Below, one piece after another: positions 31,031-48,049 of a stretch of 57,561 nucleotides of DNA. The DNA is taken from contig CAYOWI010000004.1 in assembly GCA_964407685.1 (NCBI GenBank), forward strand, positions 1 to 57,561. The letters run 5' to 3'. Within the stretch, counting starts at the first letter, position 1. Each line of letters starts with the position of its first letter. A model generated the notes under the pieces. It was not told the DNA's origin. It searched no databases and saw nothing but the letters and a program-made list of their open reading frames with translations. The stretch is from an uncultured Muribaculaceae bacterium (GTDB lineage: Bacteria > Bacillota_I > Bacilli_A > RF39 > UBA660). The translations under genes were made by a program, and so were the position numbers.

Positions 31031-31660
31031 TCACCTGTAAAGTAAGGTGATTTTTCTTCCTTTGGATTTAATAAAGCCTTCTTCTTTTAAGTATTTTAAT
31101 TCTCTTGACATAGCGGATCTATCAACTGCTAGATAATCGGCTAAGTCAGTTAAACTAAATGGCAAATAAATGTTATTCGTTCCATGCTTTTTTCTATATA
31201 TATTAAAATATTCAAGTAGTTTATCTCTTATTGTTTTTTTTGTTAATATTTCTATTCTATCATTTTTTTCATCAATTACTTTTGTTGTAATTTCTAGCAA
31301 ATTTTTTATAAATTGATTGTAATACGGAAAGTTTATATTCTCAAAAGAGATTATTGCGTCGTAATCTATTATTAGTGCCTTGGTATCCTCTTTGGCTATT
31401 ATTTGGCATTCGTCGCTTGTTAATGAAGATATTGCTGTACCGAATGCAAATCCTTCTTCCAATTCTTCTATAATAGTTCTATTTCCATTGTAATCAGTTC
31501 TTATTATTTGTGCGGTACCTTCAAGTATTATACCAATTATGCTTTCGTTTATACCAGATAACATAACCGTGTTTTTTTTGTAGTTTAAGATGCTAGCTTC
31601 CAATAATTTTAATAATTTATTTTGCTGGTTTACACTAATATTATTAAATAATTTGTACAT
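31031..31660 (-). CDS. Crp/Fnr-family transcriptional regulator
   Basis: N-terminal cNMP-binding-like beta-roll. C-terminal HTH LTDLADYLAVDRSAMSRELKYLKEEGFI. Divergent from the nrdD cluster. Confidence 0.8.
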   Translation of the reverse strand: MYKLFNNISVNQQNKLLKLLEASILNYKKNTVMLSGINESIIGIILEGTAQIIRTDYNGNRTIIEELEEGFAFGTAISSLTSDECQIIAKEDTKALIIDYDAIISFENINFPYYNQFIKNLLEITTKVIDEKNDRIEILTKKTIRDKLLEYFNIYRKKHGTNNIYLPFSLTDLADYLAVDRSAMSRELKYLKEEGFIKSKGRKITLLYR

Positions 31661-31700
31661 TTTACACCTCTTACTTAAAATAATATCATTTTTTTAAAAA

Positions 31701-31716
31701 TGTTGCAATTGCAACA
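31701..31716. promoter_or_regulatory. perfect 16-bp palindrome TGTTGCAATTGCAACA (candidate operator)
   Basis: Self-complementary over all 16 nt. Lies in the divergent intergenic region between the Crp/Fnr gene and the first nrdD-like gene. Confidence 0.4.
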
Positions 31717-31773
31717 GTGTTATGCTGTATAAATGTGATATATTCTTTTTGTAACATAGCAAGAGGAGTTAGT

Positions 31774-33885
31774 ATGAAAGTAGTTAAAAGGGATGGACAC
31801 ATAGTAGATTATTGCCCAGAAAAAATCGAAATTGCAATTAAAGCGGCTAATAATGAGGTTCAAGAAGAAGATAAAGTATCTGATATTCAAATAAAAAACA
31901 TTATTAAGTATATAGAGAGTTTAAAGAAAAAAAGAATGCTTGTTGAAGATATCCAAGATATTATTGAAGTAAGACTTATGGCACTTAATAAGTATGCTTT
32001 GGCAAAAGCTTATATTACGTATAGATACACAAGAGAACTAGTTAGAAGAAGTAATACAACAGATTTGTCTATTAAAGAATTGATTGCTGGTGAAAATGAA
32101 TATTGTAGTACTGAAAATTCTAACAAAAATACTAAGGTTATTACTACCCAAAGAGATTATATTGCAAGTATTACATCAAACGATATTGCTAGAAGATTTT
32201 TGCTTCCTGAAGATATTGTAAAAGCACACGATGAAGGTTTAATTCATTTTCACGGTATGAATTATTTTGCTCAAAATGCACTTCATAATTGTGATTTAAT
32301 AAACCTAGATGACATGCTTCAAAATGGTACAAATATAAATGGTATTATGATTGAAAGGCCACATAGATTTTTGACCGCAATGACCATTGCAACCCAATTA
32401 ATTGCGGCAGTTAATTCTAGCCAATATGGAGGGACGACAATAACACTTACTCATTTAGCTCCGTTTGTTAGAGAAAGTTATAATTGTTTCTTAGACAAAT
32501 ATAAGAAAAGAAAGTTTACTAAAGAGAAATGTGAAAAATACGCAAAAGAAGATTTGAAAAAAGAGGTTGCTGATGGAGTTCAAACCTTTCAATATCAAAT
32601 AAATTCTATGACTACAACAAATGGTCAAGTTCCGTTCTTATCGGTTTTTCTATACCTAGGTGAAACTGATGAGTATAAAGAAGAACTTGCTATGATAATT
32701 GAGGAGGTACTAAAACAACGTATAAAGGGAATGAAAAATGAAAGTGGAAGTTTTATAACTCCTACGTTTCCAAAACTTTTATACGTGCTTGAAGAAGATA
32801 ACATTCATAAAGATGGTAAATATTATTATTTAACTGAAATTGCTGCAAAATGTACTAAAAAAAGAATGACACCTGATTACATATCAGAAAAAGTTATGAA
32901 AGAAATTAGTAAAGACGAAAATGGCGTTGGACAGTGTTATCCTTGCATGGGAAGAAGATCATTTCTTACGCCGGATAGAACACTTAATTTTGGAAACCTT
33001 GCTAAAGCAAAAAATTACATTCCTGGAAAAGGAAAATATTATGGCAGGTTTAATCAAGGGGTTGTAACAATAAATTTAGTGGACATAGCGTTATCTTCAG
33101 ACAAGGACATGGATTTGTTTTGGAGCATAATGCGTGAAAGGTTAGAATTGTGCCACAGAGCGCTTCAAATTAGACATAAAAGATTATCTAAAGTAACTAG
33201 TGATGTTGCGCCTATACTGTGGCAGCATGGTGCACTTGCAAGACTAGAAAAGAAAGAAAGCATTCATGATTTATTACACCATGGGTATTCGACTATATCA
33301 CTTGGCTATGCTGGTCTTTATGAGTGCGTTAAATTCATGACGGGATATTCACATATTGATGATGGTGATGGTAAAGATTTCGCCGTTAGGATAATGAAGG
33401 AGCTAAACGATAATTGTAAAGAGTGGAAAGAAAAAGAAGACATAGATTATTGTGTTTATGCTACTCCAGGAGAATCAATAACTTATAAATTTGCTAAATG
33501 TTTGAGAGAGAAATTTGGCAGGATTAAAGGTATTACGGATTCAATTAACATAACTAATTCATATCACGTGCCAGATTTCGAAGATCTTAACTGGATAAGT
33601 AGATTAAAATTTGAAAGTGAATTTCAGTCTTTATCTAAGGGTGGTGCAATAAGTTATATAAACATAAATAGCATAGATAACATAATGGAAGTAATCCAAT
33701 TTTTATATGATAACATTTTATATGCTGAGTTAAGTACAAAATCTTATAAGTGTCAAAATTGTGGCTATGAAACAGAAACTTTAATGGATGAAATCTCAGA
33801 GTGCTGCTGTCCGGAATGTGGATTTCAAGGTAGTATGCAAAAAATAAAAAAAAGTATGGATAATACCAAGCAAGAAAATCTTTGA
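31774..33885 (+). CDS. NrdD-like anaerobic ribonucleotide reductase paralogue lacking the glycyl-radical motif
   Basis: ATP-cone N-terminus (VVKRDGHIVDYCPEKIEIAI). NrdD-like core, including GRFNQGVVTINL. C-terminal Zn ribbon CQNCG...CPECG. The protein ends ...SMQKIKKSMDNTKQENL* without an RxxGY motif. Confidence 0.8.
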   Translation: MKVVKRDGHIVDYCPEKIEIAIKAANNEVQEEDKVSDIQIKNIIKYIESLKKKRMLVEDIQDIIEVRLMALNKYALAKAYITYRYTRELVRRSNTTDLSIKELIAGENEYCSTENSNKNTKVITTQRDYIASITSNDIARRFLLPEDIVKAHDEGLIHFHGMNYFAQNALHNCDLINLDDMLQNGTNINGIMIERPHRFLTAMTIATQLIAAVNSSQYGGTTITLTHLAPFVRESYNCFLDKYKKRKFTKEKCEKYAKEDLKKEVADGVQTFQYQINSMTTTNGQVPFLSVFLYLGETDEYKEELAMIIEEVLKQRIKGMKNESGSFITPTFPKLLYVLEEDNIHKDGKYYYLTEIAAKCTKKRMTPDYISEKVMKEISKDENGVGQCYPCMGRRSFLTPDRTLNFGNLAKAKNYIPGKGKYYGRFNQGVVTINLVDIALSSDKDMDLFWSIMRERLELCHRALQIRHKRLSKVTSDVAPILWQHGALARLEKKESIHDLLHHGYSTISLGYAGLYECVKFMTGYSHIDDGDGKDFAVRIMKELNDNCKEWKEKEDIDYCVYATPGESITYKFAKCLREKFGRIKGITDSINITNSYHVPDFEDLNWISRLKFESEFQSLSKGGAISYININSIDNIMEVIQFLYDNILYAELSTKSYKCQNCGYETETLMDEISECCCPECGFQGSMQKIKKSMDNTKQENL

Positions 33886-33896
33886 TGGAGGGTGAA

Positions 33897-34610
33897 ATGG
33901 TAAGTAGTAAAAATTTTAAGATAGGTGGATTTCAAAAATTATCATTACTTGATTATCCAGGAAAAATGTGTGCAATTATATTTACTGATGGTTGTAATTT
34001 AAGATGTCCATATTGCCATAATTATGAACTAGTTGAAAGCGAAAAAGAAAATGATTTGATTGAACCAGGAGAAATAATTAAATATCTTATAAAAAGAAAA
34101 AATGTATTAGATGGGTTGACCATTAGTGGTGGGGAGCCTACCATGCAAATTGGCTTAGAAGAGTTTATTGAGGAAGTAAAAGAAAAAACGGGTTTATCAA
34201 TAAAGCTTGATACTAATGGAATAAATACGCAAAAACTAAAAAAACTGGTAGATAAAAAATTGGTAGATTACGTGGCGATGGATATAAAATGTGATTTAGA
34301 TGGATATAAAAACGTAAGCGGAATTTCTAATCTAGATTTAGAAAAAATAAAGGAATCTATAAAAATATTAAAAGAAAACAAAGTGAATTATGAATTTAGA
34401 ACTACCATAATAAAAAATTATCATAACGTAGATAAAATAAAAAATATATTAAAAATGATTGGTTATGATTCTCATTATTATTTACAAAAATTTATTGTAA
34501 GTGATAATGTTCCAAATAAAAGTCTATTATCTTTTGATAATGAAGAGCTAAAAAAAATGTATAGCGAAATAAAAAAGGATTATCCTAATGTAAAAATTAG
34601 AGGTATATAA
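33897..34610 (+). CDS. nrdG: anaerobic ribonucleotide reductase activating protein (radical SAM)
   Basis: SLLDYPGKMCAIIFTDGCNLRCPYCHN contains the CxxxCxxC cluster. ATG at 33897 follows GGAGGGTGA. Confidence 0.85.
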   Translation: MVSSKNFKIGGFQKLSLLDYPGKMCAIIFTDGCNLRCPYCHNYELVESEKENDLIEPGEIIKYLIKRKNVLDGLTISGGEPTMQIGLEEFIEEVKEKTGLSIKLDTNGINTQKLKKLVDKKLVDYVAMDIKCDLDGYKNVSGISNLDLEKIKESIKILKENKVNYEFRTTIIKNYHNVDKIKNILKMIGYDSHYYLQKFIVSDNVPNKSLLSFDNEELKKMYSEIKKDYPNVKIRGI

Positions 34611-34631
34611 AAGTTGAAGGAGGAAAATAAA

Positions 34632-37013
34632 ATGTACAACGTAAAAAAAAGAGATGGAAAAATAGTAAAATTTGAATTAGGAAAGATAAAAAACGCTTTA
34701 AAAAAAGCTATAGAATCTTCTGATACCCCAATAGAAGATGACGTAATTGATTTTATGTCGTTAAAAGTTACCGCGGATTTTTCTGCTAAGATAGAAAATA
34801 ACGTAATATGCGTTGAAGATATCCAAGACAGTTGTGAAAACGTTCTTGGAAAATCTGGTTACCAAGAAGCTGCAAAAGCATTTATCTTATATAGAAAAAT
34901 TCATGAAAATCAAAGGAACATAACAAATACTATGCTAGACTACAAAAAATTAGTAAATAGTTATTTAAAGGTTGCAGATTGGAGAGTAAAAGAAAATTCA
35001 ACGGTAACTTACTCAATAGGAGGACTTATTTTAAGTAACTCTGGGGCTATTACTGCGAACTATTGGTTAAATGAAATTTATGATAAAGAAATTGCAGACG
35101 CACACAAAAATGCTGATATACACATACATGATTTATCAATGCTTTCAGGATATTGTGCAGGATGGAGTTTAAAACAATTAATTAAAGAAGGATTAGGAGG
35201 CGTTCCTGGGAAGATAACATCATCTCCAGCAAGACATCTATCTACTTTATGTAACCAAATGGTAAATTTCTTAGGGATAATGCAAAACGAATGGGCTGGT
35301 GCACAAGCATTTTCTTCATTTGATACTTATCTTGCACCATTTGTAAAAGTTGATAATTTATCATTTAAACAAGTAAAACAATGCATCCAATCATTTGTTT
35401 ATGGCGTAAACACACCTTCTAGATGGGGAACCCAAGCTCCGTTTACAAATATAACTTTAGACTGGACTGTACCAAATGACTTGGCAAACTTAAATGCTAT
35501 CATTGGTGGAGAAGAAATGGACTTTAAGTATAAAGATTGTAAAAAAGAAATGGATATGATAAACAAAGCGTTTATTGAAATTATGATTGAAGGGGACGCA
35601 AATGGTAGGGGGTTCCAATATCCAATTCCTACATATTCAATAACTAAGGATTTCGATTGGTCTGAAACTGAAAATAATAAACTTTTATTTGAAATGACCG
35701 CAAAATATGGAACACCATATTTCTCAAACTACATTAATTCTGATATGGAGCCAAGCGATGTTCGATCTATGTGTTGTAGATTAAGATTAGATTTAAGAGA
35801 ATTAAGAAAGAAATCAGGAGGTTTCTTTGGAAGTGGGGAATCAACTGGTTCAGTTGGTGTCGTTACAATTAACTTACCTAGAATAGCATATGTTGCAAAA
35901 GATGAAAAAGACTTTTATGTTAGATTAGAAAAAATGATGAATATAGCAGCTAAAAGTTTAAAAGTAAAAAGAGACGTAATCACAAAGTTACTAAATTCAG
36001 GTCTTTACCCATATACAAAGAGATATTTAGGAACTTTTAATAATCATTTTTCAACCATTGGTTTAGTTGGAATGAACGAAGTAGGATTAAATGCTAAATG
36101 GTTAAAGAAAGATTTAACAAATAGTAAAACTCAAAAATTTGCTCAGGATGTTTTAAACTTCATGAGAAATAAATTATCTGATTACCAAGAAGAATATGGG
36201 GATTTATACAACCTAGAAGCAACTCCAGCAGAATCAACTTCTTATAGGCTTGCTAAACATGATAGGGAATTATATCCAGAAATAATAACTGCTACTGAAG
36301 GAGAAAAAACACCTTACTATACAAACTCATCACACTTACCAGTAGGATATACACAAGATGTATTTGAGGCGTTAGATGTTCAAGATAAACTTCAGACCTT
36401 ATATACTTCTGGAACGGTATTTCATACTTTCTTAGGTGAAAGATTAGAAGATTGGAGTGCTACTGCAAAATTAGTTAGAACCATTGCAGAAAATTATAAA
36501 TTACCATATTACACTATTTCACCAACATATTCGGTTTGCAGTGAACATGGATATATTGTTGGCGAAGTATATAAATGCCCAGAATGTGGCGAGGAAACAG
36601 AAGTATATAGCCGTATAACAGGATATTATAGACCAGTTAAAAACTGGAATGATGGTAAAGCACAAGAGTTTAAAGATAGAAAAATATATAAAGTTGATTG
36701 CGACAAAAAAACTAAAAAGATAGCAAAAACTAAGTGTTGTAAAGAATCAGAAAAAGAAACTAGTTGTGCTGAAAACCAGACCGGTAATAAAATAATGTTA
36801 TTTGAAAGAAAAACTTGCCCAAATTGTAAAATGGCAGATAAACTTCTTACAAGCAAAGGAGTAAATTTTATAAAAATTGATGCTGAAGAAAACGCAGATT
36901 TAACAAAACAATATGGAATAAAAACCGCTCCAACACTTGTTATAGAATCAAATGGTGAGCAAAAGATAATTGTAAATTTATCAAATATAAAAGGTGAAAT
37001 AGAAAAACTATAA
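34632..37013 (+). CDS. nrdD: anaerobic ribonucleoside-triphosphate reductase NrdD fused to a C-terminal glutaredoxin/NrdH-like domain
   Basis: ATP-cone (VKKRDGKIVKFELGKI). Finger loop RSMCCRLRL. Zn ribbon CPECG. Glycyl-radical motif SRITGYYRP. A Cys-rich linker is followed by a 73-aa thioredoxin-fold tail with CPNC (36792-37010). Confidence 0.85.
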   Translation: MYNVKKRDGKIVKFELGKIKNALKKAIESSDTPIEDDVIDFMSLKVTADFSAKIENNVICVEDIQDSCENVLGKSGYQEAAKAFILYRKIHENQRNITNTMLDYKKLVNSYLKVADWRVKENSTVTYSIGGLILSNSGAITANYWLNEIYDKEIADAHKNADIHIHDLSMLSGYCAGWSLKQLIKEGLGGVPGKITSSPARHLSTLCNQMVNFLGIMQNEWAGAQAFSSFDTYLAPFVKVDNLSFKQVKQCIQSFVYGVNTPSRWGTQAPFTNITLDWTVPNDLANLNAIIGGEEMDFKYKDCKKEMDMINKAFIEIMIEGDANGRGFQYPIPTYSITKDFDWSETENNKLLFEMTAKYGTPYFSNYINSDMEPSDVRSMCCRLRLDLRELRKKSGGFFGSGESTGSVGVVTINLPRIAYVAKDEKDFYVRLEKMMNIAAKSLKVKRDVITKLLNSGLYPYTKRYLGTFNNHFSTIGLVGMNEVGLNAKWLKKDLTNSKTQKFAQDVLNFMRNKLSDYQEEYGDLYNLEATPAESTSYRLAKHDRELYPEIITATEGEKTPYYTNSSHLPVGYTQDVFEALDVQDKLQTLYTSGTVFHTFLGERLEDWSATAKLVRTIAENYKLPYYTISPTYSVCSEHGYIVGEVYKCPECGEETEVYSRITGYYRPVKNWNDGKAQEFKDRKIYKVDCDKKTKKIAKTKCCKESEKETSCAENQTGNKIMLFERKTCPNCKMADKLLTSKGVNFIKIDAEENADLTKQYGIKTAPTLVIESNGEQKIIVNLSNIKGEIEKL

Positions 37014-37030
37014 ATTTAAGGGAGAATAAA

Positions 37031-37960
37031 ATGGCTGAAAATAATAATTCAACTTATGATGTAATCATTATCGGAGCAGGGCCTGCGGGCCTTACTTCCG
37101 CCATATACTTATTAAGAGCTAATAAAAAGGTTTTAATTCTTGAAAAAGAGGCAATAGGTGGTGGAATTACTTCAACGCCGCTTATTGAAAATTATCCTGG
37201 ATTTATAAATATATCGGGTCAGCAGTTAGCAAGCAATTTGTTTGAACAAGTTACAAACCTTGATGGTGAATTAGAAGTATATGAAGTTAGCTCTATAGAA
37301 AAAACTTCAGATAATTTAATAAAGATAATAACTGATGGACCAACGTATTTGTCAAAATCGGTTATTATTGCAACAGGTACTAAATACAGAACTTTAAATC
37401 TTCCAAATGAAGAAAATTTAATTGGTCATGGAATAAGTTTTTGTGTTACTTGCGATGGTGCATTTTATAGGGGACAGGTTGTTGCAGTTATTGGTGGAGG
37501 CAATAGCGCCATAACAAATGCTTTAGAGTTGTCAGACATTTGTAAACAGGTAATTATTATTCAAAATCTTCCGAACTTAACCGCAGAAAATACTTTGTTA
37601 GATAGGCTAAATGAAAAAAATAACGTTAGGGTTATTTGTAATGCTAAGGTTACGGAGTTAATTGGTGAAAAAGAATTAGAAAAAATAAAAATAATTAATG
37701 ATAAAAATGAAGAAACAATTAAAGTAGATGGCATGTTTGTTTCCGTAGGACGTTTACCGGAAACTGATTTTGTAAGCGGAATCATTAATCTTAATCAAGA
37801 TAATTTCATCAATTCGGATGATAACTGTAATACAAACATTGAAGGTATTTTTGTTGCAGGAGATGTAAGAAATAAAGCTTATAGGCAAATAACAACTTCA
37901 ACATCTGATGGTACAGTAGCAGCTTTAGAAGTTATTAAATACCTAAGTAATAATGAATAG
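37031..37960 (+). CDS. trxB: thioredoxin-reductase-like flavoprotein disulfide reductase
   Basis: FAD motif IIIGAGPAGLT. Redox CxxC in FCVTCDGAFY. GGGNSA motif. C-terminal FVAGDV. The HRRxxxR NADPH motif position reads IIQNLPNLTAE. Confidence 0.8.
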   Translation: MAENNNSTYDVIIIGAGPAGLTSAIYLLRANKKVLILEKEAIGGGITSTPLIENYPGFINISGQQLASNLFEQVTNLDGELEVYEVSSIEKTSDNLIKIITDGPTYLSKSVIIATGTKYRTLNLPNEENLIGHGISFCVTCDGAFYRGQVVAVIGGGNSAITNALELSDICKQVIIIQNLPNLTAENTLLDRLNEKNNVRVICNAKVTELIGEKELEKIKIINDKNEETIKVDGMFVSVGRLPETDFVSGIINLNQDNFINSDDNCNTNIEGIFVAGDVRNKAYRQITTSTSDGTVAALEVIKYLSNNE

Positions 37961-37976
37961 TAAAAAGGAAAATTAT

Positions 37977-38426
37977 ATGATAATAGAAAAAGTTAAAATA
38001 AAAAAATTAGATAAAAATGCAAAAATACCAACATATGGTACAAATTTTGCTGCTGGAGCTGATCTTTATGCTTGCTCTAGTGAGGCTATATCATTTGAAC
38101 CGGGTGAAACAAAGTTAATTAAAACAGGTATTTCACTTGAAATACCTGAAGGGTATGCAGGACTTATTTATGCAAGAAGTGGTCTTGCTACTAAAAGAGG
38201 GTTAGCGCCAGCAAACAAAGTTGGAGTTATTGACTCTGATTATAGAGGAGAAGTTATGGTATCACTTCATAATCATACTAATGAAGTTAGAAAAATAGAA
38301 AGCTATGAAAGAATAGCACAACTTGTTATTACACCATATTTAAAAGCCGATTTTGAGGAAGTAGAAGAGTTAGATGATAATACTGAAAGAGGAACTTCGG
38401 GATTTGGATCTACTGGTACTAAGTAA
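37977..38426 (+). CDS. dut: dUTP diphosphatase
   Basis: dUTPase motifs AAGADLYA, ARSGLA, GVIDSDYRGEV and C-terminal RGTSGFGSTG. Confidence 0.85.
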   Translation: MIIEKVKIKKLDKNAKIPTYGTNFAAGADLYACSSEAISFEPGETKLIKTGISLEIPEGYAGLIYARSGLATKRGLAPANKVGVIDSDYRGEVMVSLHNHTNEVRKIESYERIAQLVITPYLKADFEEVEELDDNTERGTSGFGSTGTK

Positions 38427-38449
38427 AGAAACGTAAAAGTTTCTTTTTT
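38426..38449 (+). terminator. rho-independent terminator after dut
   Basis: AAGAAAC / GTTTCTT stem followed by a T-run. Confidence 0.6.
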
Positions 38450-38508
38450 CTTTTGTATAAAATTGACTAAAAAAAATCATAATGATATTATGATAATAGG
38501 TGATAGAT

Positions 38509-38907
38509 ATGAAAAAGAATAATAAAGGTTTTACATTGATAGAGTTGCTTGCAGTAATAGTAATACTTTCAATAATTCTTACTATTGCAACTACGTCAGT
38601 CATTAAGAACATTAATGATTCTAAAGAAAAAGCAAGATATATAACAGCTAAAGAAATAGTTCAGATAGCAGAAGCTTATTTTGCTACAAAAGGTGCTGAT
38701 GAAAATGGTTGTGTTAATGTTGAAGACATGGTAACAGATGGTTTTTTAGAAGAAGATATTATTAATCCATTAAATGGAGAAAATAGAAACGAAAGTAATA
38801 AATTAACTAATCAAAAGATTTGTAAATCGGAAGATGTTGCTCAAAGTGATTATAAAGTAAATGATAATACTTATAAATTTGATGGCTTTTATTATAAATT
38901 AAAATAA
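38509..38907 (+). CDS. prepilin-type N-terminal cleavage/methylation domain protein (type IV pilin / pseudopilin-like)
   Basis: MKKNNKGFTLIELLAVIVILSIIL is the class III signal (G/FTLIE) with a hydrophobic helix. No other pilus or com assembly genes are adjacent. Confidence 0.7.
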   Translation: MKKNNKGFTLIELLAVIVILSIILTIATTSVIKNINDSKEKARYITAKEIVQIAEAYFATKGADENGCVNVEDMVTDGFLEEDIINPLNGENRNESNKLTNQKICKSEDVAQSDYKVNDNTYKFDGFYYKLK

Positions 38908-46820: not shown

Positions 46821-47900
46821 ATGTCAAAGTTAAAGTTTGAAAACGTGATTAAAAAATACGGGAATAACGTTGTTTTTGAAAATTTGAGTTTTGAAATAAA
46901 CGATGGTGAATTTGTTGTTTTGGTTGGTCCTTCTGGTTGTGGAAAAACAACTTTATTAAGAATGATATCTGGTCTAGAAGATTATGATAGTGGAAACGTT
47001 TACTATGAAAATAAATTAGCCAATAAAAATAAACTTATTAATAAGAGTGCTATGGTGTTTCAAAATTATGCTTTGTTTCCTAATATGACGGTGTTTGATA
47101 ACATGACCTTTGGACTAAGAAATAATAAAATAAATAAACAAGAAATAAATGACATGGTTTATAAAACGGCAGAAATGTTAAAAATAAACCATTTGTTAAA
47201 GAGAAGACCTAATGAATTATCAGGTGGTGAAAAACAAAGAGTAGGTTTAGGAAGAGCTTTAGTAAGAAAGCCAGATATATTCTTACTTGATGAACCATTA
47301 GCAAACCTTGATGCAATGTTAAAAGGAAACATGAGAAAAGAAATCAAAAAGATTCATAAAAGAATAAAAAGTACGTTTGTTTACGTTACTCATGATCAGT
47401 TAGAAGCGATGACTTTAGCAACTAAGATAATCGTTATTGATGATAAAAGTATAAAGCAAATAGGAACTCCTTATGAAATATATAAAGAACCAAAAAATAT
47501 ATTTGTAGCAACTTTTTTTGGTAGTCCTAAAATTAATATTTTAGATGCCTACATAATAAAAAAAGATAATACGTATTATATTAAATACGATGAACAATTA
47601 TTTAAATTAAATAAGAATAAATATAATTATGAAGTATTGGTAAAATACGATGCTAAAAAGATTAAAATCGGTATTAGAGCAGAAAATATAAAAATAACTA
47701 GAAATACAGGTATGCAGGTAGATGTTATTAACGCAGAAAACATAGGTAAGGAAAGTTATCTTTATGTAAAATATAAAAATGATTATTTAAACGTTATAAG
47801 TGATAATGACTATCGTGAAAAAAAAGAAATTTTTATTGATTTTAATAATGACTTTTTGTTGTTTGATTATGAGTCTGAAAAAAATATATGTAGTAAATAA
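46821..47900 (+). CDS. ABC transporter ATP-binding protein with a C-terminal TOBE-like domain
   Basis: Walker A GPSGCGKTT, signature LSGGEKQR, Walker B IFLLDEP, plus a ~120-aa C-terminal extension as in MalK/PotA-type ATPases. Confidence 0.85.
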   Translation: MSKLKFENVIKKYGNNVVFENLSFEINDGEFVVLVGPSGCGKTTLLRMISGLEDYDSGNVYYENKLANKNKLINKSAMVFQNYALFPNMTVFDNMTFGLRNNKINKQEINDMVYKTAEMLKINHLLKRRPNELSGGEKQRVGLGRALVRKPDIFLLDEPLANLDAMLKGNMRKEIKKIHKRIKSTFVYVTHDQLEAMTLATKIIVIDDKSIKQIGTPYEIYKEPKNIFVATFFGSPKINILDAYIIKKDNTYYIKYDEQLFKLNKNKYNYEVLVKYDAKKIKIGIRAENIKITRNTGMQVDVINAENIGKESYLYVKYKNDYLNVISDNDYREKKEIFIDFNNDFLLFDYESEKNICSK

Positions 47901-47923
47901 CCATAAATGATAAATTTATGGTT
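47899..47923 (+). terminator. hairpin after the ABC ATPase gene (weak terminator, no clear T-run)
   Basis: AACCATAAAT / ATTTATGGTT, a perfect 10-bp stem with a 5-nt loop. Confidence 0.35.
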
Positions 47924-47937
47924 ATGAAGAGGATCTT

Positions 47938-48049
47938 ATAAAAACGTATTTTATCATGTTAAAGAATCTTTAAAATTAAAGAAATATTTTGATGATTTAT
48001 TAGGTTATAATTTATATGATTTGTTTCCGGAAATAAAGGAAAATTTATA
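47938..48049 (+). repeat. direct repeat copy 2 (orphan remnant of the HD-domain gene 3' end)
   Basis: Matches 42592-42703. It keeps the reading frame (…KNVFYHVKESLKLKKYFDDLLGYNLYDLFPEIKENL) and ends in TAG instead of TAA. No upstream ORF body. Confidence 0.9.

Follow-up and report, generated by a model that had tools for sequence, protein, structure and literature searches.

The stretch analysed here, in the following called the window, comprises 57,561 nt of contig CAYOWI010000004.1 (assembly GCA_964407685.1), read on the forward strand. It contains five consecutive plus-strand genes for an anaerobic ribonucleotide reductase (RNR) system, nrdD1, nrdG, nrdD2, a trxB homologue and dut, which are separated by gaps of at most 21 nt or overlap slightly. 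As no terminator-like site was found on the plus strand within positions 31717-38426, the group looks like a single operon (Table 1). Its central element is nrdD2, whose product is a class III RNR catalytic subunit extended at its C-terminus by a redoxin domain and is referred to here as NrdD2::Grx. Together with the adjoining genes for an activase (nrdG2), a TrxB-like flavoprotein and a dUTPase, the nrdD::grx fusion gene belongs to a horizontally acquired, self-contained class III RNR cassette at positions 33882-38426. Many strict anaerobes, among them a large part of the gut microbiota, have class III RNR as their only route to deoxynucleotides (dNTPs), and formate is the textbook reductant of these enzymes.

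Table 1. Features of the nrd locus in the window and positions of degenerate NrdD paralogues at fusion loci of other Bacilli.
Feature	Position	Strand	Evidence or remark
Crp/Fnr-family regulator	31031..31660	-	divergent from the nrd operon; Pfam HTH_Crp_2 and cNMP_binding
Promoter-like site	31661-31689		directly upstream of the palindrome
Perfect 16-bp palindrome, candidate operator	31701-31716		TGTTGCAATTGCAACA
NrdD1, resident E. coli/T4-type NrdD without either radical residue	31771..33885	+	PRK09263, 724 bits
NrdG2-type radical-SAM activase, cassette gene 1	33882..34610	+	TIGR02495, 208.9 bits (cut-off 131)
NrdD2::Grx fusion (class III RNR catalytic subunit plus redoxin domain at the C-terminus)	34632..37013	+	
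NrdD2 ATP-cone	34638..34907	+	Pfam PF03477, E 1.2e-17
Active-site Cys in GYC of strand beta-A (T. maritima NrdD: Cys125)	35154..35156	+	alignment to 4COI/4U3E
Finger loop SMCCRLRL, double-Cys motif preceded by Met	35766..35789	+	motif classes according to PMC9669993
Active-site Glu in YNLEATPAE (T. maritima NrdD: Glu495)	36216..36218	+	alignment to 4COI/4U3E
Zn site (CSEH...CPEC) and glycyl-radical loop RITGYYRP	36537..36635	+	
Linker, 33 residues, lysine-rich	36690..36788	+	4 non-conserved Cys
Thioredoxin-fold redoxin domain, 74 aa	36789..37010	+	Pfam Glutaredoxin and Thioredoxin above cut-off; AlphaFold2; Foldseek
CPNC motif	36816-36827	+	
cis-Pro loop TAPTLV	36924-36941	+	
TrxB-like flavoprotein disulfide reductase	37031..37960	+	
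CVTC motif	37442-37453	+	
GGGNSA motif	37493-37510	+	
QNLPNLTAE motif	37562-37588	+	
dUTPase, PRK00601 type, last cassette gene	37953..38426	+	overlaps trxB by 8 nt
N-methyl (type IV pilin-like) gene	38500-38907		beside the cassette
Degenerate NrdD paralogue, locus L024	5149-7161		
Degenerate NrdD paralogue, locus L025	5232-7184		
Degenerate NrdD paralogue, locus L028	4745-6640		
Degenerate NrdD paralogue, locus L031	149-2137		
Degenerate NrdD paralogue, locus L052	1599-3557		
Degenerate NrdD paralogue, locus L076	5244-7187		

The open reading frame of nrdD2 extends from 34614 to 37013, and residue numbers given below refer to the 799-amino acid frame that begins with TTG; the ATG at 34632, which is preceded by an AGGAGG ribosome-binding site, is the probable true start. 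Pfam profiles detect the ATP-cone at residues 9-98 and an NRDD domain (PF13597) at residues 127-692, where the profile is covered from end to end (1-562 of 562; E 1.9e-192), and the NCBIfam model PRK08270 is matched with 1132.7 bits against a cut-off of 548. The finger loop SMCCRLRL occupies residues 385-392, the Zn site CSEHG...CPECG residues 642-659, the glycyl-radical loop RITGYYRP residues 667-674 and the CPNC motif of the tail residues 735-738. In the alignment to the structures of Thermotoga maritima NrdD (4COI/4U3E), C181 within GYC, the pair C387-C388 and E535 correspond to Tyr124-Cys125, Cys329-Cys330 (SCCR) and Glu495, respectively. The NRDD barrel, the finger-loop cysteines, the C-terminal Zn site and the glycyl loop that characterize a class III RNR catalytic subunit are all found, as are the ATP-cone, the MCCRLRL finger loop, the Zn ribbon and RITGYY that a preliminary description of the window had listed as hallmarks of this protein. 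Profiles, motifs and alignment agree in this respect and confirm that the class III RNR catalytic subunit encoded here is complete.

A third active-site cysteine and a glutamate define the redoxin-dependent subtype of NrdD, also designated NrdD2 (PMC4493059, PMC9669993), in which the residue equivalent to Glu495 of T. maritima is the proposed proton donor (PMC9669993). The double-Cys finger loop and the Glu495 equivalent place the enzyme of the window in this subtype. It lies, however, outside the 'thioredoxin-only' subclade, whose finger loop reads SCCR with no methionine before the two cysteines, whereas that of the window reads SMCCRLR.

Downstream of the NRDD domain, a linker (residues 693-725, including KCCKESEKETSC) leads into the redoxin domain, which is made up of residues 726-799. 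The Pfam Glutaredoxin profile matches residues 727-778 (E 3.7e-8; 33.9 bits, cut-off 22.9), the Thioredoxin profile likewise scores above its cut-off (28.5 bits against 23.5), and the Glutaredoxin/Thioredoxin match as a whole spans residues 727-788. An AlphaFold2 model of the tail, calculated from an alignment of 24 sequences, reached a pLDDT of 93.6 and displays a beta-alpha-beta-alpha-beta-beta-alpha topology in which CPNC starts helix 1; when it was used as a Foldseek query, thioredoxins were returned with TM values of 0.7-0.8, many of them with a probability of 1.00. The topology, the CxxC motif at the beginning of helix 1 and the cis-proline loop are those of a thioredoxin-fold redoxin. 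Seventeen columns of the domain, among them those of C-P-N-C and of the A-P pair in the cis-proline loop, are invariant in the 24 sequences, which are 48-72% identical, and the ratio of non-synonymous to synonymous substitution rates (dN/dS) of the domain is about 0.1. The domain search, which the preliminary description had recommended, and the structure model of the tail both substantiate its claim that a thioredoxin-fold CxxC domain is tethered to NrdD.

Two other statements made about this part of the protein hold only in part. The tail had been likened to NrdH and YruB-type proteins, and these are indeed the nearest families by profile, but the scores (37.2 bits for YruB, TIGR02196, cut-off 88.55; 28.8 bits for NrdH, TIGR02194, cut-off 85.75) are far below the family cut-offs. 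The tail is a distinct subfamily with a conserved signature of its own, KTCPNCKMA...IDAEEN...APTL...SNIK. Similarly, the linker had been described as Cys-rich, and four cysteines are present in the window, yet they are not conserved: in 83 distinct tails the linker is variable in length and contains between zero and six cysteines, most often one. This rules out the linker as a conserved electron relay. With a dN/dS of about 0.2, the highest in the gene, it is probably a flexible tether. A profile search of the genome for glutathione-forming ligases of the GshA/GshF type (PF04262) yielded no match, which makes a TrxR-type reductase a plausible recharger of the redoxin domain, as is the case for NrdH.

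Such a reductase is encoded next to the fusion. The reading frame of the TrxB-like protein begins 17 nt downstream of nrdD2 behind a GGGAG ribosome-binding site, and its product contains the motifs GAGPAG, CVTC (residues 138-141), GGGNSA (155-160) and QNLPNLTAE (178-186), the last of which occupies the position of HRRDxLRA in three aligned NADPH-type TrxRs. These details agree with the preliminary description, which had noted a TrxR homologue with a CVTC pair at this distance and QNLPNLT where HRRxxxR is expected. Of the features of low-molecular-weight TrxRs, the FAD-binding GxGxxG, the CxxC and the GGGxxA are present and HRRxxxR is missing; the score against the equivalog model TIGR01292 (330.2 bits) is just below the cut-off of 343.45. 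The AlphaFold2 model of the protein resembles TrxR structures. All 117 parsable sequences among the closest 120 homologues share Q(N/D)LxxLT(A/G/C/S)E together with GGGN(S/T)A, and this uniformity marks the loss of HRR as a fixed trait of the family and not as decay.

The fusion itself is widespread. In a collection holding one genome per species the redoxin domain is encoded at no fewer than 538 places, the best 80 of which were examined. In all 78 of these loci for which upstream sequence was available the domain forms the C-terminus of an NrdD, and no free-standing form of it was found among the best 80. A search restricted to the tail returned 221 clusters of NrdD proteins of about 780-820 amino acids that carry it; among the 120 matches listed, CPNC and RITGYYR are present in every sequence and MCCR in 119. 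In an evenly drawn sample of the phylum of the window the fusion occurs in 44 of 299 high-quality genomes (15%) and in 33 of 135 genera, always within open frames of 784-846 amino acids. Titles of the records with the domain name Lachnospiraceae, Oscillospiraceae, Ruminococcaceae, Acutalibacteraceae, Faecalibacterium prausnitzii, Pseudoflavonifractor, [Eubacterium] hominis, Erysipelotrichaceae and many metagenome-assembled genomes (MAGs) labelled 'Bacilli bacterium'. An assembly artefact as the origin of the fusion or of the junctions in the window can be ruled out, given that hundreds of independent assemblies contain the fusion in frame and that two Logan assemblies repeat the gene order including the truncated nrdD1.

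A survey of the co-occurrence of fusion and TrxB, which had been suggested in the preliminary description, showed that at 55 of the 74 loci with at least 1 kb of downstream sequence the fusion is immediately followed by a trxB homologue in the same orientation, and these loci belong to two classes of Firmicutes. The preliminary description had also been unaware of any characterization of the arrangement. We found none either, but a design that is encoded at 538 or more places is not rare, nor has it gone wholly unnoticed: one grx::nrdD fusion, that of Lachnospiraceae bacterium TWA4, was recorded from a RefSeq search by Rozman Grinberg et al. 2018 (PMC6187632). The design is thus common in Firmicutes, mentioned once in print and uncharacterized.

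As a separate observation, the C-terminal 200 residues of an NrdD::Grx fusion (52% identity, 99% coverage) are encoded at positions 47428-48036 of MT835493.1, an unannotated phage genome of 57 kb from human faeces. Other phage NrdDs match only the portion that precedes the tail.

The 57 full-length partner reductases encoded next to such fusions differ in the predicted cofactor site. Twenty-one are of the Q(N/D)L type seen in the window, 15 have (T/A)LFD together with a degraded GDANTA loop, 14 have the canonical HRR, five have (Y/C)R(G/K) and two HR(S/Q). The QNL type as an intrinsic property of the module is ruled out, since the reductases encoded after nrdD::grx fall into at least five motif classes. 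As far as these motifs can tell, a TrxR-type enzyme is a conserved partner whose cofactor site is plastic, with about one quarter of the partners keeping the NADPH triad; about three quarters have no NADPH site, which implies that the electron source is often other than NADPH. For the enzyme in the window, NADPH is disfavoured by the loss of the HRR/R site for the 2'-phosphate while the pyrophosphate loop GGGNSA is retained. The most likely donor, as predicted from the motifs, would be NADH, or both pyridine nucleotides might be used in a relaxed manner. The TR of T. maritima is cited in PMC5627308 (Yang and Ma 2010) as preferring NADH over NADPH.

As the main alternative to a pyridine nucleotide, the QNL reductase of a functional redoxin chain might receive its electrons from reduced ferredoxin or flavodoxin, in the manner of clostridial FFTR, or from another low-potential carrier, which would be compatible with the total loss of the HRR/R triad. 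Precedents for NAD(P)H-independent low-molecular-weight TRs exist in DvTRi, FFTR and the TR of Thermoplasma acidophilum (PMC5627308), and the 15 partner reductases with GDANTA have a degraded GxGxxA loop. In TRi, however, the GxGxxA motif is 'highly degenerate' (PMC5627308), and FFTR and TRi are recognized by the degeneration of both GxGxxA and HRR, whereas GGGN(S/T)A is intact in the window enzyme and in 117 of its closest 120 homologues. The best match in the PDB is the TrxR of Thermosipho africanus (7JYP; 241 bits), in which the corresponding motif reads VQNLPYLTA, and the L. lactis TrxR (213 bits) is likewise closer than FFTR (6GNA; 138 bits). A donor other than a pyridine nucleotide therefore appears doubtful to us.

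The genome encodes a second TrxB (contig C15, 17046-17972) with the motifs CAIC, GGGNSA and NRSSSLRA, which scores 302 bits against TIGR01292 and hence below the cut-off, as well as a canonical WCGPC thioredoxin (contig C2, 49195-49494). These two proteins probably constitute the housekeeping system. Each of 24 congeners possesses a single TrxB, which in the five inspected is of the HRR or NRS type, and none has the QNL reductase; it follows that the latter came with the fusion. The score of the QNL protein just short of the TIGR01292 cut-off (330 versus 343 bits) and the annotation of its homologues as 'thioredoxin reductase (NADPH)' at the source could be taken to mean that it is a general thioredoxin reductase whose position next to nrdD is coincidental. 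This is very hard to reconcile with the presence of the second TrxB, which is of the type that serves some congeners as their only one, with the arrival of the QNL gene as part of the cassette and with the adjacency at 55 of 74 loci in two classes of Firmicutes, and we consider it highly improbable. The notion of a dedicated reductase that is possibly independent of NADPH, put forward in the preliminary description, thus stands as far as dedication is concerned, the gene having been co-acquired in addition to the housekeeping pair; independence from NADPH, by contrast, does not hold for the module at large, as 14 of 57 partners have HRR.

The history of the locus can be read from the congeners. 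Eight of them share the gene order ThrRS, Crp, nrdD1, nrdG (172 amino acids, TIGR02491 type), dut, pilin-like gene, L28 (four of eight) and PolC (six of eight), with an intact nrdD1 that encodes both PCMGCRSF and RRTCGYIG. The fusion and its redoxin domain are present in none of the 24 congeners. In the window, everything from the last 45 or so codons of nrdD1 through dut has been exchanged for nrdG2 (TIGR02495), nrdD::grx, trxB and a different dut (PRK00601; the displaced dut of the congeners is PRK13956-like). One breakpoint lies just past the Zn-site codons of nrdD1 (about position 33830), the other in the interval that separates dut from the pilin-like gene (38426-38500). The same arrangement recurs in two independent Logan assemblies, L101 and L102. 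L102 has a cassette and an nrdD1 3' end that resemble those of the window (synonymous divergence, dS, 0.2-0.3), whereas the rest of its nrdD1 is congener-like (dS 1.2, MGCGSF), and this mosaic structure suggests that the cassette was spread within the genus by homologous recombination.

The exchange left NrdD1 without either radical residue. Its finger loop reads CMGRRSF, in which the radical cysteine is replaced by arginine, while PCMGCRSF is found in 119 of 119 closest homologues. According to an alignment to 9D3X and T4 NrdD, the glycyl loop RRTCGYIG has given way to an unrelated tail of 19 residues (QGSMQKIKKSMDNTKQENL), and Pfam and NCBIfam profiles detect no Gly_radical domain in NrdD1; the replacement by the cassette accounts for the loss of the glycyl loop. 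Neither a TIGR02491-type NrdG nor a class I or class II RNR was detected in the genome, which is 91.5% complete. With the radical residues of NrdD1 lost, its activase gone and no RNR of the other classes found, NrdD2::Grx is the only RNR in the genome as assembled that is predicted to be catalytically competent.

We regard an acquired cassette with a tethered-redoxin electron path as the best explanation of the locus and assign it a probability of about 65%. A pyridine nucleotide, most likely NADH, would reduce the FAD of the TrxB-like enzyme, from which the electrons would pass to its CVTC dithiol and on to CPNC of the redoxin domain, held at the C-terminus of NrdD by the flexible linker. CPNC would then reduce the disulfide formed in each turnover between C181 of strand beta-A and C387/C388 of the finger loop. 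Glu535 would serve as proton donor, and NrdG2 would install the glycyl radical on G670. A redoxin-driven mechanism of this kind is likely in the light of the predicted domains and active-site residues, and we infer that the physiological reductant is the tethered redoxin instead of formate and that the adjacent flavoenzyme recharges the redoxin. Of the earlier claim that the reductant is covalently linked to the catalytic subunit, the linkage of the domain to a catalytically complete NrdD is secure, but its role as physiological reductant is a conditional one, given that the methionine of MCCR and a pyruvate formate-lyase (PFL) in the genome leave room for formate.

These last two points are at the heart of an alternative in which NrdD2 depends on formate while the redoxin domain and the TrxB-like protein protect or repair active-site cysteines or act as a redox switch. 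The methionine retained in MCCR provides such enzymes with the components for formate as well as thioredoxin chemistry (Burnim et al. 2022; PMC9669993), the PFL is a genuine one (TIGR01255, 1217 bits), so that formate is available, and 19 of the 74 fusion loci, about one quarter, have no neighbouring trxB. All three weigh against the tethered-redoxin path, as do the heterogeneous cofactor sites of the partners, from which no single donor can be generalized, the extrapolation of NADH preference to the window enzyme through the motif of T. africanus TrxR, the completeness of 91.5%, which makes the absences from the genome provisional, and the fact that no biochemistry for any member of the NrdD::Grx fusions was found in the literature searched. 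On the other hand, the active-site glutamate and the second finger-loop cysteine, which define redoxin users, are both there, and the closely packed operon, in which trxB is translationally coupled, shows wide conservation. Moreover, the cassette displaced a formate-type NrdD/NrdG system in spite of PFL, which would be hard to explain if the incoming enzyme employed the same chemistry. Formate dependence of NrdD2 is, in our view, unlikely. The bona fide PFL also rules out a lack of formate as the reason for the thiol route and for the replacement.

Several known systems resemble parts of the proposed tethered-redoxin path. The NrdD of Neisseria bacilliformis is described in PMC4493059 and PMC9669993, which cite Wei et al. 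2014, as using TrxA, TrxB and NADPH. Like the enzyme of the window, the NrdDs of N. bacilliformis and T. maritima have the beta-A cysteine, the double-Cys finger loop and the glutamate, and a protein dithiol recharged by TrxR as reductant. They differ from it in relying on free, general thioredoxin in place of a fused 74-residue CPNC domain with a reductase gene of its own, and in having the finger loop SCCR without methionine, whereas the methionine of MCCR keeps formate chemistry possible.

A second parallel is the NrdD3 of Methanosarcina barkeri, which is cited in PMC5704485 (Wei et al. 2015) as working with an NrdH-like redoxin and a ferredoxin:disulfide reductase. As in the window, a class III RNR is combined with a dedicated small redoxin and a dedicated reductase, the latter being NADPH-independent in M. 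barkeri. However, the redoxin of M. barkeri is a separate protein, its reductase is an Fe-S enzyme of the ferredoxin:thioredoxin-reductase type and NrdD3 has no glutamate, whereas the window encodes a fused redoxin, a flavoprotein TrxR homologue and an NrdD with glutamate. The genes for NrdD, redoxin and reductase of M. barkeri reportedly form one cluster.

Fusion of a glutaredoxin-fold domain to an RNR is also exemplified by Grx::ATP-cone::NrdB of Facklamia ignava, where the domain was shown to be the reductant of the enzyme (PMC6187632). That protein is of class I, and the fusion is located at the N-terminus of the radical-generating subunit and involves a glutathione-dependent domain of the GrxC type. 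By contrast, the class III fusion in the window is C-terminal, on the catalytic subunit, and has a TrxR-type partner.

As for the individual components, T. africanus TrxR (7JYP) shares with the reductase of the window QNLPxLTA in place of HRRxxxR and an intact GGG(N/D)SA, but the TRs of Thermotogae serve free thioredoxins and glutaredoxin-like proteins as a general thiol system. The YruB/Cp9-type proteins of Clostridium pasteurianum (TIGR02196) are, like the tail, short CxxC redoxins and represent its best NCBIfam match; the tail is set apart by its low score (37 bits, cut-off 88.6), its own signature and its confinement to fusions among the best 80 of at least 538 loci. Cp9 is said to be paired with the NADH-dependent TrxR-like protein Cp34 and to be reduced by this flavoprotein rather than by glutathione.

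To our knowledge, dependence on a protein thiol has been shown for one class III enzyme only, that of N. bacilliformis, and we know of no reductant assigned to the MCCR enzymes, the majority class of those with a double-Cys finger loop. A redoxin domain welded to an MCCR enzyme and accompanied by a private reductase is strong genomic evidence for dNTP synthesis by a thiol relay in many gut Firmicutes. What is new here is the acquisition of this equipment as a cassette that displaced the resident formate-type nrdD and nrdG. The window thereby represents a natural replacement experiment in which a formate-type system was lost despite PFL, and fusion, reductase and activase form a compact set of three genes that can be directly expressed and assayed.

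The fate of the resident nrdD1 deserves separate consideration. The protein is 78-81% identical to the enzymes of congeners, which are 89-96% identical to one another, and its divergence from them is about twice the expectation; no such excess is seen for ThrRS, Crp and PolC. Between the window and L101, which both have the Cys-to-Arg exchange, 15 non-synonymous and 36 synonymous differences were counted (dN/dS 0.09), and the radical-less NrdD1 seems to be under purifying selection. Neutral decay is unsupported, as this low ratio was obtained within a lineage that already has both lesions. One may speculate that NrdD1, displaced by a mobile plug-in RNR cassette, persists as a non-catalytic partner of NrdD2::Grx. 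It could be a subunit with a regulatory or structural role that contributes an ATP-cone, or it could sense nucleotides, and would be the class III counterpart of Rnr4, the inactive R2 paralogue of yeast. The low dN/dS and the occurrence of degenerate paralogues with ATP-cone and NRDD domain upstream of the fusion in other Bacilli MAGs speak for such a partnership, which we nevertheless offer as a tentative and rather improbable scenario.

Paralogues of the kind just mentioned were encountered at six Bacilli MAG loci, directly upstream of nrdG, nrdD::grx and trxB (Table 1). They are much more degenerate than NrdD1, comprise 630-670 amino acids and match the Pfam NRDD profile with only 97-123 bits up to about position 503 of 562. 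Pattern searches detected neither an MGCR/MCCR motif nor a glycyl loop in them, and their C-terminal sequences contain no Zn-site CxxC. A dead NrdD paralogue as a general companion of the fusion is unsupported: a scan of the 299 genomes of the phylum with a query of the L024 type returned only frames of about 790 amino acids with 27-34% identity, in genomes without the fusion.

At the upstream border of the operon, the divergently oriented gene for the Crp/Fnr-family regulator is syntenic in eight congeners, with identities of 69-81%. A perfect palindrome is situated between this gene and nrdD1, directly downstream of a promoter-like site, and may be an operator. On the opposite side of the cassette, the pilin-like gene occupies the same syntenic position in the congeners, where its product varies in size from 132 to 452 amino acids.

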